Shown here piece by piece: positions 8,631-34,473 of a stretch of DNA of 57,467 nt. The notes below the pieces were generated by a model. That model searched no databases, was not told the DNA's origin, and saw only the letters and a list, made by a program, of their open reading frames with translations. This DNA comes from a bacterium. Lineage in GTDB: Bacteria; Margulisbacteria; Marinamargulisbacteria; GCA-2716485; GCA-002719695. Location: the NCBI GenBank assembly GCA_002719695.1, contig PBEQ01000016.1, forward strand, positions 1 through 57,467. The letters run 5' to 3'. How positions within the stretch are numbered: position 1 is the stretch's first letter; every line of letters starts with the position of its first letter. The position numbers and the translations under genes were made by a program.

Positions 8631-8827
8631 GATAGTTGCTAAAGGTATTTAGATAAGTAGCCTTGTAGGGATTAAGTTAAGGCATAATATGTGCTTCATA
8701 ATTTAACTATAACAAAGCTCAAAGAAGTTTGGTACTATATAATCAAAAAAAATGAAATATATTGTGTTAAAAAGACGATAACTGTAATAGTTAAGGGTAT
8801 CTTTAAGAATTATTAACATGGAGATAT

Positions 8828-11800
8828 ATGAGATATTTTAGTTTGATTTTAACATTGTTATTATTTTCTATGTCGCTACATGCGTCTGATATTGTCGTAA
8901 ACATTGATCCTAATCCTGTACAGCTTGAATCTTATTTTCGAATTTCTGTTGTTTCTGAAAAGCCTATCAAGGAAGCAATCTTATTAGTTGGAGATGATAT
9001 GTTTCCACTTAAAAAAGTGTCAGATCAATTATTTAAAATAAAATTGAAAGCATTTAATGATCTGGATTCAAATAATGTGTTTGTGAATGTTGTTTTTACA
9101 TCTTCAAAAGTTCAAATGTTGCCTGTTCAAATTAATGTTTCGCAAGGAAATGTATATCAACCAGGTATCAATGTATCTATAGATTCAGATAATTTTAATT
9201 CTGTTAGTATTGATAATACAAAATTGGAAATAGAGTATCTTGAAGATAAATTAGACTTGTTGGACCAAAAAAATAAACGCTTAAATAACGAAATTGCCAA
9301 TTTAAATCAACGCTTAAAAAATCAGAATCAATTGGATCTTACAAAAAAAGAAATTGCTCAAGAACAAAAAAAATTAGATCAACTTACGGATTTGCTAAAA
9401 CAAGAAATGATTTCGAAGCAAAATTCGATTATGGAACTAAAAAAACAGATGGAACTTTTTAATCTTCGCCAAGATGAGTTTAATAAAAGGGAGCAAGAGT
9501 TAACAAGTTTAAGTGTGAATTTATCGAAACAGTCAGAAGAATTGTTAAATAAAGAACAAAAAATAGCACAAGAAAAATTACTAATTCAGCAAAAAGAAAC
9601 GGCTATTAATCAGCAAAGAAGTTTAGTAAAAACCTCTCAGCTAGAAGTGGTTAAGGATCGTAATATGGTTGATAAAATGAAAAATGAAATTTATGTTCAG
9701 AAAAAAGAGCTTGAGAAAAGAAACAAACAAATTCGTAAGAAAGAAAAAGATTTAGATACGGTTATTGCTAGTATTGAAACAAATAAATCAAATTTGAATT
9801 CAAAAGAAAAACAATTAAAAGGGCTTTCAATTAAAATTAATAGTGAACGTCAAAATTTGATGCGGGTTTCAGAAAAGTTAGATGTAAAAAAGAAACAACT
9901 TGATTTAGAAAAAAATAAGTTTTATCAAGAAAAGTCAGAAAAGGAAAAAAATCTTAAACAAGCACAAAAAAATGTTAATGAGTTTGAAAAGAAATTGCTT
10001 GGTACTGTTTCTGAATTATCGCGTTTAGAAAAAGATTATTTAGATCGGTCTTCTCAATTTCTGAAAGAAAAAGAACGTTTAGATAATGACCGATTAAATT
10101 ATGAAAAAGAAAAAAAAGCATTTGATTTGGAATATAGTAATTTGAAATTGATGGAATCAAAAATAGCTGTACGTGTTGAAATTCTTAATAATCTTGGTCA
10201 GCATATTGATTCACAGTTAAGCTTATTGCATAAACAAATAAGTGAATCAGAGCAAACTAAAAAATCCTATGAATTGGATATGTCTGGTAAAGTTGGTTAT
10301 TTAAATAATCTTACAAAACTTATTGAAAAACGTGCTAACAAAATGGAGTATCGAAATAAGCGATTGATTGTTAAAAATAAACAATTAAGCCAGCGATTAG
10401 CCTCTATTACAGCCCCGGATTATCGTTATTCATTCTCGCCTTATTTTGGTGTTCGTATTAGTGATGATTCCAAGTCTGAATATGATGAGTATGGAATAAA
10501 TTTTTCTGCATTTCTAGAAAAAGGTTACAGTGTTACGTTGGGCGTTGGAACAGCAAGTTATATGAAAAATTCTAATTCTAATCATCAAAATATAGTTAAT
10601 GAGTCGATGGGGTATATTTCGTTAGCTTATTTACTTAATCCAAAAGAACAGTTAGGGTTTTATATCAGATCATTGGTAAGTAGGCCTCTTAAAATGGCTG
10701 CTGCTGAAATAAATTTTGGGGCTGGTTTAGATCTTAAGTACCATCATAATGCTAAATTTTCATCTTTTTTTGGTGGTTATTTTCTTGAAGCGCCTTATTT
10801 TTCATTTGGTGTTGAAAAATATATTATTCCAACATTTAAAAAATCAATAGCATTTGATAATCAAAAAAATACACCAACTGTAGATGAGTTTGAAATAGAA
10901 AATCAGGCTACTTTTGATTCAAATAATGATGTTTTTCTTTCATTTAATTCGATTAGACCTTATTTTTGTTTTTTTCCAAAATCACAGCGTTTTGATGATG
11001 TATCAAGCTCTTGGTATGAAGCGTCTGTTAATAGAACCTCATCATTAGGGTTGTTTGATCTAAAGAATTCTACAGTATTTAATCCAAAAGGATATCTAAC
11101 ATTTAAAGATATATCCTATTCTTTGGTTTGGGCACGTTATATTGATCAAATGGTTAAACCAGCTCCTATTAAAGTTGAATTTTCAATTGTTTCGGATATA
11201 CAACAGTCTGTATTTTTATCATTTTATATTTTTGATAAAAATGGAAATAAGATTAAGCAGCTTGTAGATAAAAAAGAATTTTTTATTGGTGATCATTCGT
11301 TTACTTTTGATCCTCAGTTTTCTTCTCTACAAGAGGGTTCTTACACGTTAGTATGTGATGTTTTTGTTAATAAAATTTCAAAAGCTAAATCAGTAGGGTA
11401 TAATTTAGAGTCTATTTTGATTACAAGCTATAAAGAAGATTTTATTATTAATGGAGGTACATCATTAACAGACTTTCCAGAAATTAAAGCTAATTTTAAT
11501 GCTAAAGAAACGGTCCCATACATAAAACAAGCTATTGATTATAATTGGTTATCGTTTGATAAGAATGATATTGATTTGTTTAGTAATCAAGCGGTTACTC
11601 GTTTAGATTTTATTGAAATTGTAGGTCGCTTTCTTTTAGAGGAAGGGGCTCAAAATCGCAATATTGAGGTTGATTTAACGTATTATAAAGACTTATCTCT
11701 AATACCAAAAGAAAAGCAAAAATTCTTAAAGGAATATGTTATTGAGTTGGGTTATGGAGGCGATCAAAATCAAAAATTAAATCCTTATCAATATTTAACC

Positions 11801-11905
11801 CGTGCAGAATTTGCTGTAATTCTTGATAGACTCTTACTTTGGAAACAAAAAATGTTAGATGATAAAAATATTAATTTGAATTTTAGTGAACTAGTAGTTA
11901 ATTAA
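8828..11905 (+). CDS. Secreted giant coiled-coil protein with beta-rich middle region and C-terminal SLH-like repeats
   Basis: 1025 aa with a GGAG RBS and a signal peptide (LLFSMSLHA/SD). Residues ~130-530 are K/E/Q/L-rich and heptad-like. The middle is beta-strand-rich, with an FlgD-Ig-like segment (GDHSFTFDP...EGSYTLVCDV). Two SLH-like motifs sit at the C-terminus: AVTRLDFIEIVGRFLL and YLTRAEFAVILDRLLL. Confidence 0.75.
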   Translation: MRYFSLILTLLLFSMSLHASDIVVNIDPNPVQLESYFRISVVSEKPIKEAILLVGDDMFPLKKVSDQLFKIKLKAFNDLDSNNVFVNVVFTSSKVQMLPVQINVSQGNVYQPGINVSIDSDNFNSVSIDNTKLEIEYLEDKLDLLDQKNKRLNNEIANLNQRLKNQNQLDLTKKEIAQEQKKLDQLTDLLKQEMISKQNSIMELKKQMELFNLRQDEFNKREQELTSLSVNLSKQSEELLNKEQKIAQEKLLIQQKETAINQQRSLVKTSQLEVVKDRNMVDKMKNEIYVQKKELEKRNKQIRKKEKDLDTVIASIETNKSNLNSKEKQLKGLSIKINSERQNLMRVSEKLDVKKKQLDLEKNKFYQEKSEKEKNLKQAQKNVNEFEKKLLGTVSELSRLEKDYLDRSSQFLKEKERLDNDRLNYEKEKKAFDLEYSNLKLMESKIAVRVEILNNLGQHIDSQLSLLHKQISESEQTKKSYELDMSGKVGYLNNLTKLIEKRANKMEYRNKRLIVKNKQLSQRLASITAPDYRYSFSPYFGVRISDDSKSEYDEYGINFSAFLEKGYSVTLGVGTASYMKNSNSNHQNIVNESMGYISLAYLLNPKEQLGFYIRSLVSRPLKMAAAEINFGAGLDLKYHHNAKFSSFFGGYFLEAPYFSFGVEKYIIPTFKKSIAFDNQKNTPTVDEFEIENQATFDSNNDVFLSFNSIRPYFCFFPKSQRFDDVSSSWYEASVNRTSSLGLFDLKNSTVFNPKGYLTFKDISYSLVWARYIDQMVKPAPIKVEFSIVSDIQQSVFLSFYIFDKNGNKIKQLVDKKEFFIGDHSFTFDPQFSSLQEGSYTLVCDVFVNKISKAKSVGYNLESILITSYKEDFIINGGTSLTDFPEIKANFNAKETVPYIKQAIDYNWLSFDKNDIDLFSNQAVTRLDFIEIVGRFLLEEGAQNRNIEVDLTYYKDLSLIPKEKQKFLKEYVIELGYGGDQNQKLNPYQYLTRAEFAVILDRLLLWKQKMLDDKNINLNFSELVVN

Positions 11906-15544: not shown

Positions 15545-16026
15545 AACAAAATCATGTAAAAGGTTTAGAACAACAAGATACAATTAAAGGTGATTTAGAT
15601 GGGAAATCATTTTCAGTTTATATTGTTGTGGCTTCGTATAATGGAGATATTGCACAGGGACTATTAGATGGTGCCTTGAACGCATTAAATGAGTGTGGAA
15701 CGACATCTATTAAGATTATTGAAACTAATGGTGCTTTTGAACTTCCGTTGGTTGCAAAAAAATGTGCTCCATTATGTGATGCCGTCATTTGTTTAGGTGC
15801 CGTTATTAAAGGAGATACGGCTCATTTTGATCATGTTTCTAATGAATGTGCTCGAGGAATACAACAGGTTATGCTTGAAACAGGTAAGCCTGTAATATTT
15901 GGTGTTTTAACGACCTATACTGTTTTTCAGGCAAAAGAAAGATCATTACCAGATTCGTTTAATGAGGGGTATGATGCTGCAAATACTGCGATTAGTATGT
16001 GTTCATTAATGACTAAACTATCTTAG
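15541..16026 (+). CDS. ribH: 6,7-dimethyl-8-ribityllumazine synthase
   Basis: 161 aa. Motifs GAFELP and ICLGAVIKGDTAHFDHV. 4-nt overlap with ribBA. Confidence 0.9.
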   Translation: MKQNHVKGLEQQDTIKGDLDGKSFSVYIVVASYNGDIAQGLLDGALNALNECGTTSIKIIETNGAFELPLVAKKCAPLCDAVICLGAVIKGDTAHFDHVSNECARGIQQVMLETGKPVIFGVLTTYTVFQAKERSLPDSFNEGYDAANTAISMCSLMTKLS

Positions 16027-16027
16027 T

Positions 16028-16630
16028 TTAATAAGAACGGATTGTTCCTATACATTTTCCTAAGATTTTTAAATTGGAAGATTTATAAACAAAAATGGGT
16101 TTAAAGTTATTATTTTCAGCTTTTAACGTAATGTGATTTTTTTCTTTAATATATCGTTTTAATGTTGCTTCATTATCAATAAGAGCTGCTACAATATCTC
16201 CTGAGCGAATTGGTAAATCTTTCTCAATTATTGCAATATCTCCCTCTAGGATACCTGCATTAATCATACTATCTCCTTTAATAGTTAAGGCAAATTTGTT
16301 TTTTTTATGTTTTAACATAGTTAGAGATTCTACAGTTTTATCAAAATGTTCAATGGCTTCTGTTGGTGTTCCAGCATGGATATGACCTAAAATAGGTGTT
16401 GAAAATGGCTGTGCTAAGAGCGTTAATGCTCTTGCTTTAGAATGGCGTTTGATGTACTTTTTTCGTTCAAGAATTTCTAGATATGTTCTAACAGTACCAT
16501 CGGAATTAAACTTGAATTCTTTAGCGATTTCTTTATAAGATGGGTAATATTGTTTGTCTTGAAAAAAATCATAAATAAAGTTTAAGATTGCGGCTTGTTT
16601 TTTTGTGAGGGATTCTAAACTATTGCCCAT
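16028..16630 (-). CDS. lexA: LexA repressor (S24 self-cleaving transcriptional repressor)
   Basis: 200 aa. N-terminal winged HTH (LTKKQAAILNFI, YPSYKEIA), Ala-Gly site (HAGTP), catalytic Ser (GDSM) and Lys (ATLKR). The start overlaps the upstream gene by 11 nt. Confidence 0.9.
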   Translation of the reverse strand: MGNSLESLTKKQAAILNFIYDFFQDKQYYPSYKEIAKEFKFNSDGTVRTYLEILERKKYIKRHSKARALTLLAQPFSTPILGHIHAGTPTEAIEHFDKTVESLTMLKHKKNKFALTIKGDSMINAGILEGDIAIIEKDLPIRSGDIVAALIDNEATLKRYIKEKNHITLKAENNNFKPIFVYKSSNLKILGKCIGTIRSY

Positions 16631-17189
16631 GTTCTAGTCTTGTAATAATTTCTACAATGTTTAAATTAGTTTTATCAATAGGTGTAATTTTTGCACTTAT
16701 TGAGGTTTTAAAATTATGAATAATATTTAATAATCCAATTTCAGATTGTTCTTGATTGTACATTAAATTATTTTTCATGCGATTAATAATAAGTGACTCA
16801 ATATCTTTTGTTTGTAATTGGTTCAGGGTGTGTATTAGGTTGTTAGCCGTATCGTTTGTTGCAATATTTTCAGTGATAAAAATAATTTCCTTTTCGCAAT
16901 TTTTTAAAAATATATTAATTTCATTTTGATCTTGATAACTATGCTTCATTGCATTTTCTATTAATTCGTTAATTATAGTAGATAAAATAGATTTAATTTC
17001 TTTTTTCTTATAAAATGATGAGACGCAATAATCAGCAAAAAAATTGGATATTAAACTACATTTTTCCCAATCTTTAGAATGATCAATAGGCATTTTAAAA
17101 GACAAAGAAACTTTTTCTTTAAGTTTTTTAAGTTTAGATTCGTCTAAATTTCCTAAGAATGTTGTCACTGTGATTTTAGATAGATTCAA
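16620..17189 (-). CDS. GHKL-like (SpoIIAB/RsbW-type anti-sigma-factor-like) protein
   Basis: 189 aa. N-box INELIENAMKH and G2-like SEIGLLNII, but the G1 DxGxG position reads ENIATND. Overlaps the STAS gene by 14 nt and lexA by 11 nt. Confidence 0.55.
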   Translation of the reverse strand: MNLSKITVTTFLGNLDESKLKKLKEKVSLSFKMPIDHSKDWEKCSLISNFFADYCVSSFYKKKEIKSILSTIINELIENAMKHSYQDQNEINIFLKNCEKEIIFITENIATNDTANNLIHTLNQLQTKDIESLIINRMKNNLMYNQEQSEIGLLNIIHNFKTSISAKITPIDKTNLNIVEIITRLEHGQ

Positions 17190-17514
17190 TGTCTAATTTT
17201 TCCCAAAGTTGTTTTAATGATAATAAAGTTTTTTGTTGCCAAGGAATTGAATTATTAATAATTAATTTCATATCTTTATTATCTTTCCTTGCTTGAATGA
17301 TAATTCTTGCTAATGATGTTATTCCAGAACTATTTAAGTATTCTAATGAAGTTAAGTTTACAGTAAGCGTATCCGTACAATTTTCGAGACTTTTTTTTAT
17401 GAGTGAAAATGGTTGATCGTAAGATAATGGCGATGGTAACCTCATAGATCCAGATATAGAGACTTCATTTAAAATGCTTGAGTCAATAATATAATCATCT
17501 GTTTTAATAATCAT
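17176..17514 (-). CDS. STAS-domain protein (anti-sigma-factor-antagonist-like), copy 2
   Basis: 112 aa. STAS core LEYLNSSGITSLARIII with the conserved Ser. Roughly two thirds identical by eye to the 18131-18469 product. Confidence 0.7.
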   Translation of the reverse strand: MIIKTDDYIIDSSILNEVSISGSMRLPSPLSYDQPFSLIKKSLENCTDTLTVNLTSLEYLNSSGITSLARIIIQARKDNKDMKLIINNSIPWQQKTLLSLKQLWEKLDIESI

Positions 17515-18025
17515 TTTTTAAATCCTTACTGTTTAAATTTAATGTTATTTGTGTTTTTAAAATTGTGGTTACATTCCTTGGTTTTTTTTCATAATCTATT
17601 TTTATAGATCCATTGTAGTCCTCAATAAAACTATAGATGGCATATCCTAGTTCTGCAAAAGTTTTTGTAAATATAATAGATTCAAAATTGTTATTTTTTT
17701 TGATTAAATAAATTTTTTTTAAATAGCTTTTTAATAGAGATATTTGCTGAAATTGAAGAAAAAAGGATAGGGTTATTGTTGTAATATTATTGGTTTTATT
17801 ACAAGTTAATGTATAATTTTCAGTTTTTTTTGCTCCATATTTAACAACTAGCTCTAAACATTCATTGATTACCGTGGCGATAACATTACTCAGAAATACT
17901 TCTTTCTGTTGATTGTTACTAAATAAACTTGAACAAAATATCGACGACAAACTGGCTCGTTTCCATGTTGAAATTATATCAGTAGGCAAGAATTTCATTT
18001 GAAAATTTAAACTATTATTTTTCAT
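17504..18025 (-). CDS. Degenerate GHKL-like paralog of the 16620-17189 product
   Basis: 173 aa. Shares the W-x-x-x-SL-S-x-F and INE motifs with the 189-aa protein, but the N-box is degenerate (INECLELVVKY; Asn and His lost). G2-like AELGYAIYSFI. Confidence 0.45.
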   Translation of the reverse strand: MKNNSLNFQMKFLPTDIISTWKRASLSSIFCSSLFSNNQQKEVFLSNVIATVINECLELVVKYGAKKTENYTLTCNKTNNITTITLSFFLQFQQISLLKSYLKKIYLIKKNNNFESIIFTKTFAELGYAIYSFIEDYNGSIKIDYEKKPRNVTTILKTQITLNLNSKDLKNDY

Positions 18026-18130
18026 TTTATTTTTTTGATATTTAAGAAGATAACTTAATAGTAACGCAAATTTGGTTTGTTTAGTAGGTTATTTATTGTT
18101 AAATAAGAGTGAGTTTATTGATTTTTTTTG

Positions 18131-18469
18131 TTAATCTAATTCAAATGATAATTGATCCCATAATTTATTTAATGACAGTAGTGTTTTGGCTTGCCATGGA
18201 ATTGATTTGTTAATTATAATTTTTAGTGGTTTGTTGTTAGCTCTTGCTTCAATAATAATTCGTGCAAATGATGTTAAGCCAGAGCTATTAAGATATTCTA
18301 AATCTTTTAAATCAATTGTTAGTATATCGCTTGCTTCTTCTAGGCTATTTTTAATTATAGAGAATGGTTTTTCATAAGATAGTGGGGATGGTAATCTCAT
18401 TTTTCCTGAAATTAGAACATGGTTTAATTGCTGAGCGTTGATAGTGTAGTCTTCTGTTTTTACAATCAT
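18131..18469 (-). CDS. STAS-domain protein (anti-sigma-factor-antagonist-like), copy 1
   Basis: ORF extends to 18508. ATG 18469 gives MIVKTEDY, colinear with the paralog MIIKTDDY and the same 112-aa length. Core motif LEYLNSSGLTSFARIII. Confidence 0.7.
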   Translation of the reverse strand: MIVKTEDYTINAQQLNHVLISGKMRLPSPLSYEKPFSIIKNSLEEASDILTIDLKDLEYLNSSGLTSFARIIIEARANNKPLKIIINKSIPWQAKTLLSLNKLWDQLSFELD

Positions 18470-18601
18470 GATTTTTATTACCTTTATATATATTTTTTTA
18501 TTTATCATACACTTTTTTATTAAAAAATTTTATATCTTTTTTTAAAATATGTTTTTTAGAAGCTTATGTATCTTATTTTTAATTATTGATAGTAAACTAT
18601 G

Positions 18602-20740
18602 TTATTTATTTATAGAAGACGGGTTTGTTGTTACTATGTTATGTTTGATAATAATAAATGTTAAATCATCTAGATATATTTTATTTGTAAAGTCGTTTAA
18701 GGTGTTAATAAACGATTTTTTAATTAGTTCTGGAGATTCATGTGCAAATTTTTCTAAGAGTTTTGTTATTCTTGAATCATTAAATTGTTCTTTTTTGGGA
18801 TTTCCATCTTGATGTGCTTCTGTAAGACCATCTGTTGCTAAAAAGAGAATATCTCCTTCTGATAAAGTGAACGATGCAGATGCAAAGCAGTTACTTGGAA
18901 TTGAATCGGTTAAGCCAATCCCGAAAGGAAGGTGACTAATTGTATGATGAACCACTTTTTTTTCTTTATATTTGTAAATAAATAAGTTTTCATGATTTCC
19001 ATGGAATTTATATGTTTTTCCATCTTGAGTATTTAATGTTACTAAGGATATAGGCCTTAGTTCTGTTAATCGTTCAAAATTTTGACAGAGTATTTTATTT
19101 GCTTTTTTGTTAATTGAAGCGGGATCAGTAAGCTTGCTGGAATGAATTAAGCTAGAGAAAATACTCTGAATCATTAACATGACCATTCCAGATCCAATGC
19201 CATGACCAGCTACATCTCCTAATATAATCCAGTTATGATCATTTTTGCTATGAATATCAAAAAAATCTCCACCTACTTCATCAGACGATCTTAAAAAGGT
19301 TGACGTTGTGCAATTTGGGATTGAGTGATTTTGAGGAATGATTTCAGATTGAATTTTTTGAGCCATGTCCATTTCAGTTTGGACTCGTAATTGTTTTATT
19401 TTTGTTAAGGTAACTTTTATTTGATTACCTAATGTTCTATATAGTTGATAATCTTCTTGTGTATATTTACTTTCATTCATTTTCTTTCCTAATAGAATCA
19501 GACAAATTAGTTGATTCTTATCATCAAAGCAGGATAGTAATAATTTTTCGTAATCAAGATTTAATTTGTCTTGAGCGGGTTTTGATAATTCACTACTTAA
19601 AACAATGTGTTTTTTTTTATTTTCAATTTCTGAAACTAATAATGGGTTTAAAGGTTTCTTTTTTACATTATTCTCTTTGTTACTAGAAAAATAGCAAATA
19701 CGTTTACTTGTTTGTTTAAATTTATCATAATGCTCAGGAATATATATTTGCACATTGCTAATTTCTAACGTATCAGTAAGTAATTTATATAAATGACGAA
19801 TTAAGTTTGTTAAATTAGTACAATTACTTGAATAATCTGAAAAATTAAGCATTACTTTTCTGTAATTGTACTCTCCTCGAAGAAATAATTTCTCTGCAGT
19901 TGATTGTAACTTGGTTCTAACAGTTTGAAAGGTTAATGAGCAAAAAATTAGGTACGTTCCAATCAAAATTGTATAAACTCCTGAAATTGTATGTGCAACA
20001 TATAATTTGTATACCCACGATAGACTCATGTAACCAAAAATATAAATAAAAATACATATACCAGATGCAACTATTTTATTTATAAGAAGGTTAATGTTAA
20101 AAAAATTGTATTTTAACATTAAGTAAGCAACAGAAAAATTGAAAACACTAGCGACTAGGGGGCCTATTTTATAAAAATGTGTTTCATTAAATAATGACGG
20201 TAAAAGTAAGTTGCATAACGTTGCTAATGAAAGTGACAATATTAAGGCTAATAAATAAAAATTAATTTGTTTGCTTTTGTCAGGATACTTTCTTTTGTTT
20301 TGTTGGCATATTTTTACAATTGAAATTGTAAAGATAATTAAGTATGCAGTCCAAATATTATGTAAAGGACCAAATGTAATATCACGTGGGTTGTTCATAT
20401 ATTGTATGTGGTAAGGTGAAAAAGATGATGAAATTGCTAGTAATGTTGGTACTATGATTCGTATGTGTGTGGAGATAGATATTTTTTTTGAAGCTATAGG
20501 TAAATAAATAGAAAAGTATATTTGGGAGCTAATAAATAGTGATGCGCAAAAATAGGCTACTTGATTCCAAAATAAAAAGCTTTCGGAACTAAAAATAAGA
20601 AAATTGCTAAGGGACCAGCCTGTAAGAAAAAATACAGATATAGAAAAGCTAATGGACTTTTTATTAATGTGAGTTAATGTTAAAGGAATTAAGCCAATGA
20701 TAATATTGAGTATAAATAAGAAAGAATAGATTGCTAACAT
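18602..20740 (-). CDS. Polytopic membrane PP2C/SpoIIE-family protein phosphatase (RsbU-like sensor phosphatase)
   Basis: 712 aa. About nine hydrophobic helices in the first ~290 aa, a linker region, then PP2C motifs DEVGGDFFDI, GDVAGHGIGSGMVM, LATDGLTEA, DDLTFIIIK. Confidence 0.85.
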   Translation of the reverse strand: MLAIYSFLFILNIIIGLIPLTLTHINKKSISFSISVFFLTGWSLSNFLIFSSESFLFWNQVAYFCASLFISSQIYFSIYLPIASKKISISTHIRIIVPTLLAISSSFSPYHIQYMNNPRDITFGPLHNIWTAYLIIFTISIVKICQQNKRKYPDKSKQINFYLLALILSLSLATLCNLLLPSLFNETHFYKIGPLVASVFNFSVAYLMLKYNFFNINLLINKIVASGICIFIYIFGYMSLSWVYKLYVAHTISGVYTILIGTYLIFCSLTFQTVRTKLQSTAEKLFLRGEYNYRKVMLNFSDYSSNCTNLTNLIRHLYKLLTDTLEISNVQIYIPEHYDKFKQTSKRICYFSSNKENNVKKKPLNPLLVSEIENKKKHIVLSSELSKPAQDKLNLDYEKLLLSCFDDKNQLICLILLGKKMNESKYTQEDYQLYRTLGNQIKVTLTKIKQLRVQTEMDMAQKIQSEIIPQNHSIPNCTTSTFLRSSDEVGGDFFDIHSKNDHNWIILGDVAGHGIGSGMVMLMIQSIFSSLIHSSKLTDPASINKKANKILCQNFERLTELRPISLVTLNTQDGKTYKFHGNHENLFIYKYKEKKVVHHTISHLPFGIGLTDSIPSNCFASASFTLSEGDILFLATDGLTEAHQDGNPKKEQFNDSRITKLLEKFAHESPELIKKSFINTLNDFTNKIYLDDLTFIIIKHNIVTTNPSSINK

Positions 20741-20782
20741 TTTAGCGATACTATAATAAATAATGATGATGTGATCAAGTGA

Positions 20783-22027
20783 TTATAGCTTTATATCAGA
20801 TGGGATATTTTGTCCATTAATTCTTAATTTTGGAGCATGGAAGTTCATATTTATTAAGGTATTGTAATGTGTTTTTGCAATTTCATGTTTTGGAATGCCA
20901 GTTGATGCTTTGATGTTTGTATGGGTTGATGTTAATAATCCTGCAAGTACGCAGCTTGTCATTTCACAGTCTAATCTATTTAAAATAATTTTTGGTAAAT
21001 AAGATAGAAAAGGCTTTATTTCATTAGGTAGGTATCGATTTTCTTTTATTGGTTCTGGGGAATTTATCATTCCTGCTTCTATACAAATTATATCTTTTTG
21101 TGATTCCATTCTTTTATAGGCTTTGTTAGCATCAAAACAATGTGGTATTGAATCATCAATTAGGATTGTTCCAGGTTTAAGTTGGTTGATGTCCAGAATG
21201 TTGGCTTGATTTGTAGCTCCAATTATAATGCTTGCTTGATAAAACTCTTTAGGGGCTTGGTTTGATGATTCAATAAATTTTATTTTATTTTTAAACCCTA
21301 ACTGTCGAATTTCTGTTTTTAAGGTATCAAATAATACTTTTACAGCTGGTATATCACATAAAATCAATTCTTTTGGATGCGGGAGTGTTTTTAACATCAA
21401 TTTTAGTGAGGATTGACCAATTGAACCTATTCCTACAAATCCAATTACTTCATTTTGGATAGTTTTGTTTTGATTTTTTAATAATTCTTTTAGAGTAATG
21501 ATTACCGTTGCTGTTGTTGTTGCATGTCCTGTTGTGATTTCCATTGTTGATTTTTTTGGTATTAAAGAGATGATGTCAGAGCCGTATTGAGTGACAGATG
21601 GAATTAATCCAGCTAGAGATATTGATTTTGCTCCGATAAAATTAGCTAAATGAAGCCCTTTTTCTAATTGAGCTTTTAATAGCGATTTGTGATTAAATAA
21701 ATCATTTTCATCAATGGGTAATACAATGATTGCTGTAGATCCAAATGAAAATTCAAAAATATTGAATAAAATTGGTAATTGCTTAAAAATTGCTTTTATT
21801 TTTTCTGATATAGATTCATTTTGTAATGGTAAATATGCTAAAGTTGCTGCATTTACTTTTTGTAATTGTCCTGTAGCTATAAGATTAAGTAACGATCGGT
21901 GTTCATATTGGATTGTTTGTTTATTTAAGGATGTTATTTCAGATTTTTTTTTTTCTTGTTTCAGTTTTTGTATTAAAGCAAGTTTTTCTTGAGGTGTTAA
22001 AGATGTAATGTTGGTAGTATATGTCAT
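20783..22027 (-). CDS. NAD(P)-binding acyl-ACP-reductase-like protein (COG5322-type, tentative)
   Basis: 414 aa. Rossmann motif GFVGIGSIGQS preceded by ITTGHATTTA. Colinear by eye with my recollection of cyanobacterial acyl-ACP reductase (TTGN..TA, GATGDIGS, LID..YP, Cys region here CEMTSCVLAGLL). No search was run. Confidence 0.5.
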   Translation of the reverse strand: MTYTTNITSLTPQEKLALIQKLKQEKKKSEITSLNKQTIQYEHRSLLNLIATGQLQKVNAATLAYLPLQNESISEKIKAIFKQLPILFNIFEFSFGSTAIIVLPIDENDLFNHKSLLKAQLEKGLHLANFIGAKSISLAGLIPSVTQYGSDIISLIPKKSTMEITTGHATTTATVIITLKELLKNQNKTIQNEVIGFVGIGSIGQSSLKLMLKTLPHPKELILCDIPAVKVLFDTLKTEIRQLGFKNKIKFIESSNQAPKEFYQASIIIGATNQANILDINQLKPGTILIDDSIPHCFDANKAYKRMESQKDIICIEAGMINSPEPIKENRYLPNEIKPFLSYLPKIILNRLDCEMTSCVLAGLLTSTHTNIKASTGIPKHEIAKTHYNTLINMNFHAPKLRINGQNIPSDIKL

Positions 22028-22034
22028 ATCTAGA

Positions 22035-24227
22035 TTAGTATGTTAGTTCTAAAGATGATGTTTGCGTGTTCAGTAAGGTTAATTGTTTGATAAGTTCATC
22101 TTGTTTTTGGTCAATTCGTTGACATAGTCCTTTCATAGTTACGTTTTCTGAAAATAGCTCACTTGGGTTTAATTCAATTCCAAATTGATCTTGTATTTCA
22201 GCAATTATTTGCATCATGATTAAGGAGTTCCCTCCTAAATATTCTAATTTAGATGACAAAGATACAGCTGGTATATTTAGTAAATTTTTTAATATATTAC
22301 TGATAATTTCTTCTGTTGCAGTTAGAGGGATATGGTTGTTTTTTTTAGGAATTTTTTTTGTGATTTTGCTTGTTACAACGTTTAAGCTATTGTTTATAAA
22401 ATGCTGTTTGCATAACTGACGCTGTTTTTTACTACTAGATGTTTTTGGCAAGCTCATGGGTTTGATATAAATAATATCATTAATCGAAAATCCATATTCA
22501 TGAAAAATAGCTTGTATTATTTTTTGACTTAATTTTTCTTGATTAAAGGACTTAACATGAACCCTTTCTATTTCAATTGCAGTGGCTAATTTTTGTGTAC
22601 CATTGGATTGATATTCAAAAATAATACAACCCCCTAATTTTATTTCTTTTGCTATGCTTTCTATTTGATTTTCTATGTCATGAGGATAGATGTTTTTACC
22701 ATGAATTATTATCATATCTTTAATTCGGCCTGTTACAAATAAATCATTGTTGTCATTAAAAAATCCTAAATCTCCTGTTCTTAGAAAGTGACCATCTTCG
22801 TTCTTCAAGGTTGCTTTAAATGTGAGATCAGTTAAGGCAGGTTTGTTCCAATATCCTTTACAGACATTTGGACCTTGTACCCAAATTTCGCCAACTATAT
22901 TTTTTGGATTTTCAGTTAATGAATCAGGATTAACAATTTTTATTTTTTGTTGATTCCATGATTTTCCACATCCAACAAGAATGAGTTCATCTTTACTGTT
23001 TTTTGGAGGTTTAATGGTGTTAGTTGCTAACTCATGTTTATCAACAGGTAATAATACGGGTGATTGATCGCAAGGTGCGCTTGTAGCAAAACATGTTGTT
23101 TCCGCTAATCCAAATAAAGGACAAAATGCATCAAATGAAAAGTTGCACTCTTTAAATTTTTTTGAAAAGTTAGTTAGGGTTTCAGCTTTTATAGGTTCGG
23201 CGCCATTAAATGCTATTTTCCATGATGATAAATTTAATGTTTCAAGCTTTTCTTTTGCTATTTTGTTGGTACAAAGTTCATATGAAAAATTAGGGCCACC
23301 GCTGTAGTCAATTTGGTAATCACTAATTGTTTTTAGCCAAATAAAAGGATTTCGAATAAAGGCTGTTGGACTCATTAAAATAGAGAAGCCTCCTATGTAA
23401 ATAGGGTGTAAGATGTTTGCGATAATACCCATGTCATGATAGTGAGGTGCCCATCCGCAAATACGTGTTTTTCCGGATGTCTGACCAGCACACTTAATCA
23501 TATGTTGATTCGTTATGATATTATGATGACTATTAATAACACCTTTTGGATCTGATGTTGATCCAGATGTAAATTGTATAAATGCAGTATCACCTGCTGT
23601 TACATTAGGTTTTTTCCATTTTTTTTCAAGTTTAGGATCTAAATTTTGGACGGATAAAAGTTTGATTTCTTCTAATTCTGAATATAAACTACTATCTTTA
23701 TAGTGTTGGTTTTTTATTGACTCTGTTGTAAAGCCAATAATTGCATTTGTATCTTTAATAATTGTTTTGATTCGATTTTGTTTTGCGTTTTGTTTTGGAG
23801 GAAATAAAGGAACCGCAATAGCACCTCCATATATACAACCAAAAAAATCAATAATAAATTCAATGCCAGGTGGATGTAAGAGCAAAATAGGGACGTGATG
23901 GAAGTTGTTTTCTTGAATGTATGTACCTATTATTTTGGCTTTAGTATGAAGTTCTTTGTAAGTAAGTTTGCTCTGTTCTTCACCTTTTTCATTAAGAAAA
24001 ATAAATGCAGTTTTATTTGGTTTTGTTTTTGCATGAAAACTTAAAATATCAATTAAGGTTTTCTTTTCTTCAAGTTTATTAAAATTAAATGATTTAGGAA
24101 ATAATGGATATTTAAATAATGGCGGGCGTTTAGGAAAGATCGTTTGATTATCAAGTGATGAGACAACGAAGTTGTATTCATTTGATACCAGCATGGAATT
24201 TGATTTAACTTTTTTTGGTAAAACCAT
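22035..24227 (-). CDS. Fatty acyl-AMP ligase fused to an acyl carrier domain (FAAL-ACP)
   Basis: 730 aa. Adenylation motifs FTSGSTSDPKGV, GDLGF and TGRIKDMIIIHGKNIYPHDIE. The C-terminal ~80 aa form a carrier domain with phosphopantetheine Ser motif LGGNSL. Confidence 0.85.
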   Translation of the reverse strand: MVLPKKVKSNSMLVSNEYNFVVSSLDNQTIFPKRPPLFKYPLFPKSFNFNKLEEKKTLIDILSFHAKTKPNKTAFIFLNEKGEEQSKLTYKELHTKAKIIGTYIQENNFHHVPILLLHPPGIEFIIDFFGCIYGGAIAVPLFPPKQNAKQNRIKTIIKDTNAIIGFTTESIKNQHYKDSSLYSELEEIKLLSVQNLDPKLEKKWKKPNVTAGDTAFIQFTSGSTSDPKGVINSHHNIITNQHMIKCAGQTSGKTRICGWAPHYHDMGIIANILHPIYIGGFSILMSPTAFIRNPFIWLKTISDYQIDYSGGPNFSYELCTNKIAKEKLETLNLSSWKIAFNGAEPIKAETLTNFSKKFKECNFSFDAFCPLFGLAETTCFATSAPCDQSPVLLPVDKHELATNTIKPPKNSKDELILVGCGKSWNQQKIKIVNPDSLTENPKNIVGEIWVQGPNVCKGYWNKPALTDLTFKATLKNEDGHFLRTGDLGFFNDNNDLFVTGRIKDMIIIHGKNIYPHDIENQIESIAKEIKLGGCIIFEYQSNGTQKLATAIEIERVHVKSFNQEKLSQKIIQAIFHEYGFSINDIIYIKPMSLPKTSSSKKQRQLCKQHFINNSLNVVTSKITKKIPKKNNHIPLTATEEIISNILKNLLNIPAVSLSSKLEYLGGNSLIMMQIIAEIQDQFGIELNPSELFSENVTMKGLCQRIDQKQDELIKQLTLLNTQTSSLELTY

Positions 24228-24337
24228 GTTAAATTCCTATTTTTTTGACATTAAAGATAGTTATTAATGTGATACTATATATTGCATCATATTGTCAATG
24301 CTTTTGTTTTCAAAATTGTACTTATTTAGTGCTTTTT

Positions 24338-24492: not shown

Positions 24493-24747
24493 ATGTCAAA
24501 ACGTATAAAAACAAGATCATCAAATCAAAAATCAAAATCAGGTTCAAAATCAGGTTATGGTAGCCCTAATGTTAATAAACGTACGATTACAAAAAAAGAT
24601 CTTAAATCTATTTTAAAGAAACCTTGGTCTAAAATAACTAGTATGGATCTTTATAAACTGTATCAATTTGGACATCAGTCTGAAGAGCTAGCTGCTAATT
24701 TTAAAACAACAACTATTCAGATTTTGAATCGTTTACGCTATCAATGA
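24493..24747 (+). CDS. Small basic protein, unknown function
   Basis: 84 aa. Lys/Ser-rich N-half containing a 12-nt tandem repeat (SKSGSKSG), and a helical C-half. ATGA overlap with the MFS gene. Confidence 0.5.
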   Translation: MSKRIKTRSSNQKSKSGSKSGYGSPNVNKRTITKKDLKSILKKPWSKITSMDLYKLYQFGHQSEELAANFKTTTIQILNRLRYQ

Positions 24748-25898
24748 GATTATTTAAATCACATTTATTTATTTTATTTTTAGTTGTATTTACAGAGTTA
24801 ATTGGATTTGGATTGATTATTCCTGTTTTACCTCAAATAGCGTCTGAGTATCATGTTTCTCATTTTATGTTAGGTGTTCTAATGGCTTCATTTTCGTTTG
24901 CTCAATTTTTTTCTGCGCCTTTGTTAGGACATTGGTCTGATAGGTTTGGTCGTAAGCCAATTTTGATAGTTAGTAAGTGTGGAACCGTTTTAGCTTATAT
25001 TGTTTTAGCATATGCAAATTCTTTTTATTTATTTTTATTAGCTAGATTAATAGATGGTTTCACAGGCGGGAATATTGCTGTTGCACGAGCTTATATTGCT
25101 GATGTAACAACAGAAGAGAATCGTGCTAAGGGGATGGCTGTAATTGGCATTTCATTTGGCTTAGGGTTTATTTTTGGCCCAGCATTAGGAGGTATTCTTT
25201 ATAGTTTGCCAAAGGGACAATTTATTGCTTTTTTTGTTGCGAGTGGACTATCTTTTCTAGCAGTGCTGTTAACAAGCTTGTTTTTAAAAGAACCAGAATC
25301 TAAAAAACAGGTTCAGACTGATAAACGATTTTTGAGTCAGTTACTTTCTATTAAGCAGTTAATAATACTTATTTTATGTTTGATATATTTTGTTTACATG
25401 GTTTCTTTTTCAGGTTTTGAAACAACGTTTGCTATTTTTACAAGTTCTACATTATCGCTTTCGATACAAGAAAATAGTATGTTATTTATGTATGCAGGTA
25501 TTGTTGGTTTAATTGTTCAGGTATTTTTAACCAAGAGGGCATCTACGCAATTTGTACATTTTATAATGATAGGATTTTTATGTTTGTCACTTGGTTTTTT
25601 AGGAATGGCTTATGTAACTAATATGGTGGTATTATTAATTTCCTTATCTGTTTTTTCAGTAGGAATTTCTTTTGTTAATACGTTTATGCCTGCTTTGGTA
25701 AGTACAAATACTCCTGATGAAAGTAAAGAGGTTGTGATGGGGGTTTATGAAAGCATTGGAAGTATGAGTCGAATTATTGGGCCACTTATTGCTTATAGTA
25801 TTGCTATTACATACATTCGCATAGAATATGCGGTTTTTGGTATGTTAATGTTACTGCTGATTCCAATAATGTATTACTTTTTTATTTATCGTAAATAA
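24744..25898 (+). CDS. MFS transporter (DHA1/TetA-like)
   Basis: 384 aa, about 12 TM helices. MFS motif A GHWSDRFGRKPIL. Confidence 0.85.
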   Translation: MRLFKSHLFILFLVVFTELIGFGLIIPVLPQIASEYHVSHFMLGVLMASFSFAQFFSAPLLGHWSDRFGRKPILIVSKCGTVLAYIVLAYANSFYLFLLARLIDGFTGGNIAVARAYIADVTTEENRAKGMAVIGISFGLGFIFGPALGGILYSLPKGQFIAFFVASGLSFLAVLLTSLFLKEPESKKQVQTDKRFLSQLLSIKQLIILILCLIYFVYMVSFSGFETTFAIFTSSTLSLSIQENSMLFMYAGIVGLIVQVFLTKRASTQFVHFIMIGFLCLSLGFLGMAYVTNMVVLLISLSVFSVGISFVNTFMPALVSTNTPDESKEVVMGVYESIGSMSRIIGPLIAYSIAITYIRIEYAVFGMLMLLLIPIMYYFFIYRK

Positions 25899-27944: not shown

Positions 27945-28925
27945 ATGATTACACGATTTATAAGTTATTTTAGTGCAATTATTGTTTGCCAATTTGTGTT
28001 TGTCATTTTGTTGGCACCAACTTGGACGTTTTTAGTCAGTACGATTTTATTTTTATCGTTATTACTTGTTGAGATTATGCCATTAACAAAATATGCTACA
28101 TTTAAGTCTCTTTTTCATCAAAAACAACTCTATGATCCATCTATATATTTAGAATCAGCTAAACGTGTTCAAGAAGCGTTGCTATCCATTGATCCGCCTG
28201 AAACAGAGCGAATTAAAATAGTCAGGCGCTGTGTTCCTGCATCAACGTTGGGTGGTGACTTTTACACCTTTGTTAATAAATCTATGAGAAAATTAGATGA
28301 AAAAACGAAGACAAAGGGAATTGTTGAGTTAGTTGATAATAAAGAAGATTTAATTGGGGTTACTATTGGAGATGTTGCGGGTCATGGCGTATCATCGGCT
28401 TTGGTTATGGCTTTGGCTTCGGGTTTATTAGGACGAATTGGATTAAATAATCGGTCACCTGCTGTTATTTTACAACGAGCTAACCTTGATATCCAAAAGT
28501 TTATTTCTCATTCACAAATTAGTCATGTTACAGCCTTTTATTCAACGATTAATCTTGATCAAATGACCTTAACATTTGCTGGTGCTGGTCATCCAGCTGC
28601 CGTACTTTTACGCAAAGATTTAACATATCACTTATTAGAAGCTAATGGTATTTTTTTAGGAATGTATCCAGATGAAGTTTATGAAGAAAAAACAATTTCA
28701 TTAACTCCAGGTGATCGTTTGTTATTATTTACAGATGGCATTATTGAAACATCAAATGCTTATAATGAGGCATTTGGAACAAAACGGTTGGTTGATTTAG
28801 CTATTATGCATTCTGATAGAGAACCTGATGATTTGGTTGAAATTGTTTTTGAACAATTATATAAGTTTCGTGAAGGTGAAATTCAACGAGATGATCAAAC
28901 ATTAGTTGTGGTTGATATCAAATAA
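27945..28925 (+). CDS. Membrane-anchored PP2C/SpoIIE-family protein phosphatase
   Basis: 326 aa. Two N-terminal TM helices, then motifs TLGGDFYTF, GDVAGHGVSSALVMA, LFTDGIIE, DDQTLVVVD. Confidence 0.85.
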   Translation: MITRFISYFSAIIVCQFVFVILLAPTWTFLVSTILFLSLLLVEIMPLTKYATFKSLFHQKQLYDPSIYLESAKRVQEALLSIDPPETERIKIVRRCVPASTLGGDFYTFVNKSMRKLDEKTKTKGIVELVDNKEDLIGVTIGDVAGHGVSSALVMALASGLLGRIGLNNRSPAVILQRANLDIQKFISHSQISHVTAFYSTINLDQMTLTFAGAGHPAAVLLRKDLTYHLLEANGIFLGMYPDEVYEEKTISLTPGDRLLLFTDGIIETSNAYNEAFGTKRLVDLAIMHSDREPDDLVEIVFEQLYKFREGEIQRDDQTLVVVDIK

Positions 28926-33486: not shown

Positions 33487-33706
33487 CTCTAAAGTATACC
33501 GTTTTTTTTAGTGAAGTACTAATATAACTCTTTCATTTAAATTAAATACGTTTAGTTACTATTTTTAGGGCTGTTATTATAAAAATAGTACCGTTTGGAT
33601 CGATAGTGATCTAGTTATTATTGCTATCTTAAATTTTTTGCTTAAAATTGGTGTTTTATAAAAAAGACAGTAGGGTATATAATAGGCTATCTAAAAGGAG
33701 ATAATT

Positions 33707-33970
33707 GTGGCAAAAAGAAGAAAAAAAACAAATACGAAAGATCATTCTGGTAGTGAAAAAGAAGAAACCCTTGTACTCAATGGTGTTGTAACAGAATGTT
33801 TGCCTCAGACTAAGTTTCGTGTTGAGTTAGAAACCGGTCAAGAAATTATTGCTTATAACGCAGGGCGTTTAAATAAATTCCGTATAAAAATTACTTTAGG
33901 AGATAAAGTTCAGGTTGAATTATCTCTTTATGATCTAACTCAGGGCCGAATTATTCGTAGAGATAAATAA
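33707..33970 (+). CDS. infA: Translation initiation factor IF-1
   Basis: GTG start with AAGGAG RBS. S1-like core VVTECLPQTKFRVELETGQEIIAYNAGRLNKFRIKITLGDKVQVELSLYDLTQGRIIRR. Carries a ~15-aa basic N-terminal extension. Confidence 0.9.
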   Translation: MAKRRKKTNTKDHSGSEKEETLVLNGVVTECLPQTKFRVELETGQEIIAYNAGRLNKFRIKITLGDKVQVELSLYDLTQGRIIRRDK

Positions 33971-33978
33971 GTTTTTAC

Positions 33979-34245
33979 TTAATTAGCAAATAATTTGATT
34001 TTAAATGATGATTCAGTATGCTTTAGAGATTCTAAAAATACATGGCCATCTAAAATCTGTACCTTAGTTCCATCTGAAAAATGTAGTTTGTAATTACCCC
34101 CATACCGTGATGATGATAAGGTGAAATTACGATTATCAGCTAAAAAACCACCTGTTTTAACATCCATATGTAGACCAATTTTTTTAAATACAGCTAATAA
34201 ATCGGTTAGATTATAAAATTCTAATTGTTGTTTTGATAGCGCCAT
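33979..34245 (-). CDS. Hypothetical protein
   Basis: 88 aa with a strong RBS (AGGGAGGA). No motif recognised. Confidence 0.5.
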   Translation of the reverse strand: MALSKQQLEFYNLTDLLAVFKKIGLHMDVKTGGFLADNRNFTLSSSRYGGNYKLHFSDGTKVQILDGHVFLESLKHTESSFKIKLFAN

Positions 34246-34320
34246 TATGAGTCCTCCCTAATTATTTTCTATTATATGTAGTTATCGGGTTAATAACTAA
34301 AAAAATTTCATTTATTTTTT

Positions 34321-34456: not shown

Positions 34457-34473
34457 TTTTCTAAACTTATAAT
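34446..34473 (+). promoter_or_regulatory. Sigma70-like promoter facing aroE, straddling the right end of the repeat
   Basis: -35 GTGACA (34446-34451, inside the terminal inverted repeat), 16-nt spacer, perfect -10 TATAAT (34468-34473). Lies about 70 nt upstream of aroE. Confidence 0.4.

Follow-up and report, generated by a model that had tools for sequence, protein, structure and literature searches.

Why a fatty-acid-activating enzyme, a membrane phosphatase with small partner-switching proteins and the SOS repressor LexA should stand in one row of genes is the question raised by positions 16028-24227 of contig PBEQ01000016.1 (assembly GCA_002719695.1, Marinamargulisbacteria). The whole stretch of DNA analysed, 57,467 nucleotides (nt) long, is referred to as the window. 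An earlier note on this DNA had described here eight minus-strand genes in three modules, and all eight open reading frames (ORFs) were found in their places. The locus is a real variant of the partner-switching operons. In full-text literature searches no description was found of this operon, of a PP2C switch with cassettes resembling signal synthases or of LexA in a setting of this kind, in line with the earlier note, which knew of no described operon of this composition. Its main interest lies less in the combination of the three modules than in the joint replacement of a small-molecule cassette and the sensor of the phosphatase. With about even confidence, we read it as a chromosomal operon that unites a swappable small-molecule cassette, a co-inherited polytopic PP2C sensor and a conserved slr1658/slr1659 switch. 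The features of the cluster, with the source of each assignment, are the following.

24270-24298, minus strand: promoter-like element TTGACA-N17-GTATCA (conserved before the first gene)
22035-24227, minus strand: probable fatty acyl-AMP ligase (FAAL) fused to an acyl carrier protein (ACP), 730 amino acids (aa), with an N-terminal extension of about 45 aa (Pfam, NCBIfam)
20783-22027, minus strand: homolog of the terminal amidation domain (TAD) of nonribosomal peptide synthetases (NRPS), free-standing, with a fold like that of acyl-ACP reductase (AAR), 414 aa (PDB sequence match)
19871-20740, minus strand: N-terminal polytopic sensor of the PP2C (ORF 18602-20740), residues ~1-290, nine hydrophobic segments (hydropathy)
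18602-19300, minus strand: PP2C/SpoIIE catalytic domain of the same protein, residues ~481-712 (Pfam)
18131-18508, minus strand: STAS1, slr1659-family STAS-like protein, probable start at 18469 (NCBIfam)
18049-18087, minus strand: conserved non-coding element before GHKL1 (ortholog comparison)
17504-18025, minus strand: GHKL1, degenerate paralog of the slr1658 family, 173 aa (NCBIfam)
17176-17514, minus strand: STAS2, slr1659-family STAS-like protein, 112 aa (NCBIfam)
16620-17189, minus strand: GHKL2, canonical SiaB/RsbW-like member of the slr1658 family, 189 aa (NCBIfam, AlphaFold2, Foldseek)
16028-16630, minus strand: LexA, 200 aa, overlapping GHKL2 by 11 nt (NCBIfam, Pfam)

From the FAAL gene to lexA, the genes are at first separated by gaps of 7, 42, 93 and 105 nt and then overlap by 11, 14 and 11 nt. 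The junctions in the earlier note agree with these, and its value of 132 nt between the PP2C and STAS1 is the gap obtained if STAS1 begins at MIVKT (18469), the start common to the slr1659 model and the paralog STAS2, whereas 93 nt applies to the longest ORF of 125 aa. The tight spacing to which the note pointed is present but unremarkable in such a compact genome. The window is about 92% coding (27-35% GC), its co-directional neighbors have a median gap of -0.5 nt with 19 of 30 gaps at or below 10 nt, and other same-strand runs reach up to six genes. Since spacing and co-orientation of this kind are usual in the window, the case for a functional unit rests on comparative evidence.

The relatives compared with the window (loci labelled L001 and so on) include those from a scan of the GTDB species representatives, which returned at least 475 relatives of slr1658, of which the best 80 loci were examined. 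Neighboring genes were marked by simple ORF calling and searches with the window's own proteins, a crude procedure by which very divergent homologs could be missed. All relatives are metagenome-assembled genomes (MAGs), single-cell amplified genomes (SAGs) or metagenome contigs, the closer ones being marine MAGs and Tara or JGI contigs. One of them, L088, belongs to the same species as the window, with 95-99% protein identity across the cluster. The survey of gene neighborhoods proposed in the earlier note showed that the arrangement is kept in relatives, including the distant L013.

Among the close relatives, a block that starts near codon 45 of the first gene and reaches to the linker of the PP2C is replaced as a whole. 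The cassette of L005, L008 and L089 consists of a 420-aa protein and an S-adenosylmethionine methyltransferase, that of L007 and L094 of a 244-aa AfsA-hotdog protein and a weakly HAD-like protein, and that of L012 of a protein with the C-terminus of an adenylation domain, an ACP and a thioesterase. The AfsA protein has a single hotdog domain, which matches PF03756 with 85 bits (gathering threshold, GA, 24; E 4.9e-24) and also shows a ScbA/BarX match. The 420-aa protein gave no match in Pfam, NCBIfam or the PDB. Its assignment as a relative of the TAD or of the FAAL body was tried and rejected, as only the N-terminal ~43 aa are shared.

In every flanking gene, the lineages that do not carry FAAL resemble the window no less than the FAAL-type L001 does. 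Their identities to the window are 75-78% for parA, 70-73% for the adjoining MFS transporter, 77-81% for STAS2, 65-68% for LexA and 84-87% for RibBA, and the catalytic domain of the PP2C shows 73-78% in these lineages and in L001. The sensor of the window's PP2C is 62% identical to that of L001, and 23-28% identical to those of L007 and L008. The metagenome loci repeat this pattern and add one more FAAL-type lineage, L093, with a sensor 61% identical to the window's. In an all-against-all comparison, L001, L007 and L089 were 80-84% identical in both flanks and 18-28% in the sensor. The three FAAL-type representatives (L001, L093 and the window) are further apart in the flanks, with 75-76% identity downstream and 69-74% in the genes upstream, yet their sensors share 61-74%. 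Between cassette types the identity of the sensor is 18-30%, and the sensor of L012 is 24-31% identical to those of the other types. Across the swaps the catalytic domain of the PP2C (71-80% identical to the window's in all close cassette types), the STAS protein, the GHKL proteins and LexA stay conserved. The MFS gene and the small ORF next to it do not co-vary with the cassette.

Sliding windows along the alignments place the downstream breakpoint in the linker of the PP2C, between residues ~290 and 450 depending on the pair, and beyond it the identity is mostly 62-97% per window of 40 residues. The upstream breakpoint lies inside the first gene, after codon ~45. In the trees of the flanks, the FAAL-type L001 falls inside a group of AfsA-type and methyltransferase-type lineages. 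This interleaving is an indication that cassette and sensor have been replaced together at least twice, and L012 may represent a third independent replacement. The locus thus has the features of a pherotype locus: the sensor varies with the cassette, the catalytic domain and the downstream genes are conserved, and the types interleave.

Ahead of this breakpoint the first gene encodes a peptide of the form MVFPKK..SEEYQAIL..GIxPPEKTxFSYS. With 49-62% identity, it is fused in frame to three unrelated enzymes, namely FAAL (the first ~45 codons in the window), the AfsA protein (5580-5715 in L007) and the 420-aa protein (6501-6630 in L089). This peptide is either a portable functional tag or no more than the place where the exchanged block begins.

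Upstream of the first gene, the element TTGACA-N17-GTATCA is found in the window, L001, L007 and L008, whichever cassette follows, and its counterpart in L013 is TTGACA-N17-TATTTA. It presumably acts as a promoter. A conserved element of this kind was seen only before the first gene of the operon. General promoter and terminator scans of this DNA of 27-30% GC were uninformative, with matches at or below the shuffle expectation.

The profile searches bore out the domain content described in the earlier note: a probable FAAL with ACP, a PP2C with several membrane segments, small proteins resembling STAS and GHKL, and a LexA that has its cleavage site. In the first gene, Pfam identified AMP-binding (E 1.9e-56), a DIP2-like C-terminal domain (6.6e-13) and PP-binding (9.6e-11), and all top NCBIfam matches are FAAL models (E 1e-117 to 1e-83), all of them under their curated cut-offs. 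The best of these, PRK05850, scores 393 bits against a cut-off of 775 (E 1.6e-117). The attachment-serine motif of the ACP, GGNSL, is found in the translation. In the distant L013, a gene for an Sfp-type 4'-phosphopantetheinyl transferase (8396-9088 of that locus) is placed between the PP2C and GHKL1, and none is present in the window's cluster. Such an enzyme fits the need of the FAAL carrier domain for activation.

The second gene had been called acyl-ACP-reductase-like. This was close with respect to the fold, but free-standing TAD homolog is the better name. The identity of the 414-aa protein rests on a sequence match to the PDB; a single-sequence AlphaFold model was unusable, with a predicted local distance difference test (pLDDT) value of 41. 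In a phmmer search of the PDB, 9e4s_A (E 1.6e-78) and 9e4x_A (E 3.5e-77) matched over residues 23-405. The molecule name of both is "amino acid adenylation domain protein". By this name, the chain length and the number of entries they are most probably the TAD structures of CarI, for which the text of the preprint gives no PDB codes. The TAD of CarI binds nicotinamide adenine dinucleotide (NAD) and has a fold like the cyanobacterial AAR; its invariant features are a TTG motif, a catalytic Cys and an Asp at the NAD site, and its assays gave no product (Rankin et al., bioRxiv 10.1101/2024.10.28.620694). Also in the TADs characterised so far, the product may be an amide or an aldehyde. In the 414-aa protein, ITTGH, the Cys of DDSIPHCF and LCD align with the positions conserved in TADs. 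There is no match to a Pfam family and no detectable sequence match to AAR itself. We propose that the protein may be an amidating or offloading enzyme.

The third gene encodes the PP2C. A hydropathy scan of residues 2-271 showed nine segments, whose positions are much alike in all orthologs and in all sensor types. The sensors of three orthologs match HisKA_7TM (PF16927), with 56 bits in L011, 48 in L012 and 36 in L089. The catalytic part matches SpoIIE (PF07228) over residues 501-700 with 103 bits against a GA of 25 (E 2.5e-29), and the metal-binding motifs GGDFFD, GDVAGHG, ATDG and DDLT are intact in the translation. A second PP2C/SpoIIE phosphatase, soluble and 326 aa long (27945-28925, plus strand; E 2.5e-44), is located 3.7 kb upstream of the operon beyond parAB, a position conserved in L005, L007 and L008. 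The STAS proteins of the operon might be its substrates too.

The earlier note had allowed for the small proteins to fall outside the STAS and GHKL families; instead, they were placed in slr1659 (STAS-like) and slr1658 (SiaB/RsbW-like GHKL). The model slr1659_superfam (NF047705) covers both STAS proteins in full length, with 84.3 bits (E 6.8e-24) for STAS1 and 87.1 bits (E 9.2e-25) for STAS2, and both are by their sequences clear slr1659 homologs just under the trusted score of 100. The Pfam STAS model found them with E 0.0016-0.0025, below GA. Both copies contain LNSSGI, and the motif is conserved throughout 86 members of the family (N61 in 86, S62 in 85, S63 in 82 and G64 in 86). At the sequence level, LNSSGI fits the (D/N)SSG pattern of a phosphorylatable STAS serine. 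It is the counterpart of the phosphorylated DSSG serine in SpoIIAA.

GHKL2 matches slr1658_superfam (NF047703/DUF6272) with 109 bits (E 1.7e-31), above the cut-off of 100, which GHKL1 does not reach (30.4 bits, E 2.3e-7). GHKL2 keeps W41, N74, E75, E78, N79, A80, K82, N108, G150 and G152, including the N-box NExxENAxK and SGLG. On the contrary, GHKL1 of the window, L001, L007, L008, L012 and L013 has L, F or Y in place of the N-box Asn and has lost N108 and SGLG, and because these family-conserved residues are lost it is regarded as a degenerate paralog. The AlphaFold2 model of GHKL2, built with 106 homologs, has a pLDDT of 86.3 and a predicted template modeling (TM) score of 0.84. In Foldseek, ranks 1-15 of the PDB are SiaB, UsfX, RsbW and SpoIIAB, with TM scores of 0.5-0.66 on target length and SiaB 6kko_A at the top (E 8.3e-5). 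The predicted model of GHKL2 thus resembles the Bergerat fold of SpoIIAB, RsbW and SiaB. In the slr1658 family as a whole, the E and N of the N-box and a GxG-type S-E/G-I/L-G-L are present, and at G1 a nearly invariant Asn stands for the adenine-binding Asp, without DxGxG.

The description of the small genes as two STAS/GHKL pairs was right as to the families and requires revision as to the layout. STAS2 is 76-81% identical in the close relatives, and STAS1, 65% identical to it, is found only in the window and L088, being absent from L001, L007, L008, L013 and L093. The restriction of STAS1 to one species, its similarity to STAS2 and its position between the PP2C and a conserved spacer indicate a recent duplication, and the ancestral layout is therefore the triad GHKL1-STAS-GHKL2. 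The spacer includes, at 18049-18087, a ACTACTAAACAA...TTAAGTTAC-like sequence common to the window, L007, L008 and partly L001. It is a poor fit to a sigma-70 promoter, and an internal promoter or operator is possible.

The core of the locus is widespread. The pair slr1658 and slr1659 is present in 82 of 85 loci, from Cyanobacteria, Myxococcota, Spirochaetota, Proteobacteria, Chloroflexota and Margulisbacteria, and a PP2C is found within the 10-kb flanks on either side in 51 loci, mostly adjoining the pair. Polytopic PP2C, slr1658 and slr1659 are a widespread core trio. Among the best 80 loci, FAAL/TAD and LexA accompany this core only in Marinamargulisbacteria-like genomes. For instance, the single-cell genomes L009 and L013 of Candidatus Marinamargulisbacteria share the layout: L009 has the order GHKL-STAS-GHKL-LexA-ribH, and L013 (SAG AG-343-D04) has the MFS gene divergent from FAAL, TAD, PP2C, the phosphopantetheinyl transferase, GHKL1, STAS, GHKL2, LexA and ribH, with 33-64% protein identity to the window. 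The three modules of the earlier note do occur together, but they do not form one obligate unit, as FAAL/TAD is interchangeable and LexA is absent in L012 and in all loci outside Margulisbacteria. Two of the relatives, L008 (NZWE01000013.1) and L012 (JAYOLY010000034.1), are labelled Actinomycetota and Rickettsiales, respectively. Both keep the complete order of genes, and their proteins are 46-89% identical to those of the window and of the Marinamargulisbacteria genomes; their labels are probably wrong or the contigs mis-binned.

Small-molecule enzymes are also found beside the polytopic PP2C-slr1658/9 genes of distant relatives. L011 has a FAAL and a fusion of thioester reductase and aminotransferase, L010, L015 and L017 have ThiF-like and GNAT-like genes beside the membrane PP2C, two JGI contigs have ThiF, an ELFV dehydrogenase and a nitroreductase-like gene, and L087 has a methyltransferase. 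The only functional data that turned up for the slr1658/slr1659 family are genetic and give neither mechanism nor output. A Synechocystis mutant of slr1658, in work attributed to Zer et al. from 2018, is said to recover poorly from iron limitation and to over-express pgr5.

Taken as a signalling system, the operon would operate as follows. The FAAL-ACP would activate a fatty acid and load it on its own carrier domain, and the TAD/AAR-like enzyme would offload the product as a fatty amide or aldehyde. The HisKA_7TM-type sensor of the PP2C, inherited with the cassette, would most likely bind the product of the cassette as a self-made lipid-like signal, which the conserved divergent MFS transporter may export. 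GHKL2 would phosphorylate the invariant STAS serine. The PP2C, with its sensor occupied (or unoccupied), would take this phosphate off again, and the STAS protein could then switch partners among GHKL2, the degenerate GHKL1 and a further effector. The lexA gene, probably coupled in translation to the last switch gene, would be made in step with GHKL2. A signal-receptor relationship is the most likely interpretation because the block resembles the agr and comQXP pherotype signature and because one of the cassettes belongs to the AfsA family. AfsA is the canonical family of gamma-butyrolactone signal synthases. The lipid-derived signal acting through the PP2C, as suggested in the earlier note, gains comparative support from the co-replacement of cassette and sensor. 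The partner switch with an output other than a sigma factor, suggested in the same place, is consistent with the data: none of the window's ORFs of at least 100 aa showed a domain of the sigma-70 family, although a sigma factor may be encoded elsewhere in the genome, and among solved folds GHKL2 comes closest to SiaB of the sigma-independent SiaABCD system.

What the data show directly are the identities of the domains, the pattern of conservation and the joint replacement of cassette and sensor; the product chemistry, the binding of a ligand, the enzyme activities, a common transcript and the output are inferred. Several points weigh against this signal-receptor interpretation. The sample is small, as about seven lineages with four types of cassette were available, each of them a MAG, a SAG or a metagenome contig. 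The sensor domain of the window's own PP2C gives no match in Pfam. The chemistry of the TAD is itself unproven, as the published assays gave no product. The Asn in place of the adenine-binding Asp and the missing DxGxG mean that kinase activity of the slr1658 family is not assured. The AT-rich gaps of 93/132 and 105 nt, the second of which carries the conserved element, could hold internal promoters. The replacement of the block could reflect a physical or metabolic link between sensor and enzyme, or sensor and substrate, and not the sensing of a ligand. Finally, the whole neighborhood from parAB to uvrB is syntenic in the relatives, which makes conserved gene order alone weak evidence.

This synteny speaks for reading the locus as two or three unrelated transcription units (a lipid pair, a PP2C switch and the SOS repressor) that are adjacent through a compact genome and a conservative gene order. 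The tight spacing and the long strand runs, normal for the window, would agree with it, and so would promoters in the two larger gaps, the lack of FAAL/TAD in sister lineages and the lack of LexA in L012 and in other phyla. It fails, however, to explain why the sensor always moves with the cassette and why the breakpoints lie inside both genes. The promoter-like element conserved only before the first gene, the overlaps of 11-14 nt that join the last four genes, and the recurrence of unrelated small-molecule cassettes beside membrane PP2C-slr1658/9 in distant lineages also argue against it, and we consider it improbable. The main mechanistic rival is a loop of envelope or lipid homeostasis, in which the cassette would be the output and the PP2C sensor would monitor the membrane or a pathway intermediate and tune a structural or protective lipid, or an antibiotic-like one exported by the MFS protein. 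The same co-variation data fit this explanation, as a sensor that touches the substrate, the product or the enzymes of the pathway would also co-evolve with them, and the adjoining efflux-type MFS transporter is conserved. The reported phenotype of the Synechocystis mutant concerns stress recovery and redox, not signalling. On the other side, AfsA-family enzymes are to our knowledge known only from the biosynthesis of diffusible signals, products as unrelated as a fatty amide or aldehyde, a butenolide-type compound and a methylated compound are unlikely to fill one structural role, and neither the MFS gene nor the small ORF follows the cassette. We consider such a loop improbable as well. A defence island or mobile element had also been considered and was ruled out by the housekeeping flanks (accC, nusB, the rib operon, parAB and uvrB) in conserved order and by the uniform composition.

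A further explanation makes LexA the output of the switch: GHKL2 or GHKL1 would bind LexA as an anti-repressor, the dephosphorylation of STAS by the PP2C would release or capture it, and a regulon of the SOS type would answer a membrane or lipid signal independently of DNA damage. The order STAS2-GHKL2-lexA with its overlaps mirrors spoIIAA-spoIIAB-sigF and rsbV-rsbW-sigB, in a window that has no sigma factor. LexA follows the module in at least seven Margulis-like lineages, including L009 and L013 at 32-39% GHKL2 identity, so that the linkage has held across a deep divergence of the Marinamargulisbacteria, and it is rearranged in L010, LexA being found there 1.9 kb downstream in other surroundings that lack the rib genes. 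On the contrary, L012 has the same triad with GHKL2 abutting ribH and no lexA at that position, the module stands without lexA in L011, L017, L019, L031, L042 and three further contigs, and among the best 80 loci the slr1658/slr1659 pair of all other phyla has no lexA nearby. The case of L012 contradicts an obligate link to LexA, and the general synteny of the region weakens the linkage. The protein itself looks by its translation like an ordinary self-cleaving repressor, with a match to TIGR00498 (170.7 bits, cut-off 110.95), Peptidase_S24 (E 2.3e-30) and LexA_DNA_bind (E 1.1e-13), the cleavage site Ala86-Gly87, Ser121 (GDSM) and Lys158 (LKRY). LexA as the output is considered very unlikely. 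Little credence can also be given to the broader idea of a new kind of cell-to-cell or autocrine signalling. In it, a polytopic PP2C would be the receptor in place of a histidine kinase or a cytoplasmic transcription factor, each lineage would have its own small molecule (a fatty amide or aldehyde, a butenolide or a methylated product) with a matching sensor, and an slr1658/slr1659 GHKL protein that sequesters or releases LexA would let a self-made lipid signal, and not DNA damage, set an SOS-type regulon.

The search for LexA operators points in the same direction. The cyanobacterial (RGTACNNNDGTWCB) and Gram-positive (GAACN4GTTC) LexA boxes occur at chance frequency and none is located in the non-coding regions of the operon. 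The near-matches to the cyanobacterial pattern at 33764 and 34058 are likewise at chance frequency. The perfect inverted repeats common to orthologous intergenic regions are tRNA stems only, and none of the palindromes in the promoter regions or before uvrB is conserved. A 7+7 palindrome that covers the -10 region is present in L007 only. As there is no conserved operator-like pattern, no LexA operator can be proposed.

Of the genes around the cluster, accC, nusB, ribE, ribBA and ribH run towards lexA from one side. On the other side, a divergent MFS gene is followed by parB, parA and tRNA-Cys. Between the stop codons of the convergent lexA and ribH there is a single base (16026-16028) and no terminator-like hairpin, and their transcripts must therefore overlap or end inside each other's genes. 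The divergent genes next to the FAAL gene are the following.

24493-25898, plus strand: divergent pair of a basic protein of ~84 aa (24493-24747) and an MFS transporter (24744-25898), overlapping by 4 nt (ORFs, NCBIfam)

The transporter matches the Tet(A/B/C) efflux family with E 7.6e-56, under the cut-off. Both genes adjoin the operon in every cassette type, including L013, and by this position the pair may belong to the system. For the small basic protein neither a family nor a PDB match was obtained, also when a profile of six sequences was used. Its C-terminus, DLYKLYQxGxKTEDLAxKFxTTxxxILNRLR, appears helix-turn-helix-like by eye only, and the locus may have in this protein a second candidate for a regulator.

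Elsewhere in the window, a stretch of about 1 kb (33487-34521) is without an ORF of at least 100 aa and gave no Rfam match at gathering thresholds, tRNA-Cys being the only Rfam match of the whole window. A 1025-aa protein with an SLH domain and a long SMC-like coiled coil (8828-11905, plus strand) is divergent from uvrB and conserved in the relatives. It is probably a protein of the cell envelope.

Modules of PP2C, STAS and GHKL are very common, and their inputs and outputs are mostly obscure beyond sigma-B, sigma-F and SiaABCD. For one branch of the slr1658/slr1659 family, the present locus offers a testable input, namely the product of a cassette read by the co-inherited 7TM-type sensor. If this is true, phosphatase receptors would join the known kinds of bacterial receptors for chemical signals, and a pherotype-like diversification would exist in the Margulisbacteria, an uncultured sister group of the Cyanobacteria. 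The position of lexA raises the possibility of a DNA-damage-independent control of the LexA regulon. The FAAL-ACP with its free-standing TAD is also a simple system for settling the products of TADs.

Among the known systems, the TADs of CarI, VatR and HcaD resemble the second gene in a full-length alignment, in the TTG, the Cys and the NAD-site Asp, and in the carrier-protein domain directly before them. There the domain forms the C-terminus of an NRPS module, whereas here it is a discrete protein paired with FAAL-ACP.

The switches RsbU-RsbV-RsbW-SigB and SpoIIE-SpoIIAA-SpoIIAB-SigF of Bacillus share with the locus the logic of PP2C, STAS and GHKL, the (D/N)SSG serine and the order STAS, GHKL and transcription regulator in coupled genes, and in the fold comparison RsbW and SpoIIAB rank near the top. 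The differences are LexA in the position of the sigma factor, a GHKL without the DxGxG ATP-lid motifs and a polytopic membrane phosphatase. The pair slr1658/slr1659 of Synechocystis sp. PCC 6803 is alike in family membership, in the pairing of the genes and in its frequent PP2C neighbor. However, the order is GHKL-STAS in most phyla and GHKL-STAS-GHKL here, and the cyanobacterial genes have neither a FAAL/TAD cassette nor lexA attached to them.

SiaABCD of Pseudomonas aeruginosa (PP2C SiaA, kinase SiaB, STAS-like SiaC and diguanylate cyclase SiaD) is similar in its membrane PP2C, its small GHKL, its STAS-like protein and the lack of a sigma factor, and among the PDB structures its SiaB (6kko_A) comes closest to GHKL2. 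The tests of family membership failed in the present locus, with 17.1 bits against 85 for SiaB, 41.7 against 700 for SiaA and E 0.051 for Pfam SiaC, and no GGDEF or diguanylate cyclase protein is present in the cluster. In contrast to SiaABCD, the locus has a second, degenerate GHKL, a nine-segment sensor of the HisKA_7TM type, a biosynthetic cassette and lexA.

The closest parallel for the block itself is offered by agrBDCA of Staphylococcus and comQXPA of Bacillus, which also combine hypervariable signal genes and a receptor sensor with a conserved catalytic part and regulator, with intragenic breakpoints and interleaved types. A PP2C with a partner switch stands here in place of a histidine kinase with a response regulator, and small-molecule enzymes in place of a peptide precursor and its processing enzyme, in what is so far a putative signalling locus. 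Similarly, AfsA/ScbA of Streptomyces find a counterpart in the cassette of L007 and L094 (not in that of the window), where an AfsA hotdog is followed by the HAD-like protein. The single hotdog of 244 aa differs from the usual tandem pair. No receptor of the TetR/ArpA type is located nearby in these two lineages; the adjacent candidate receptor is the membrane PP2C.

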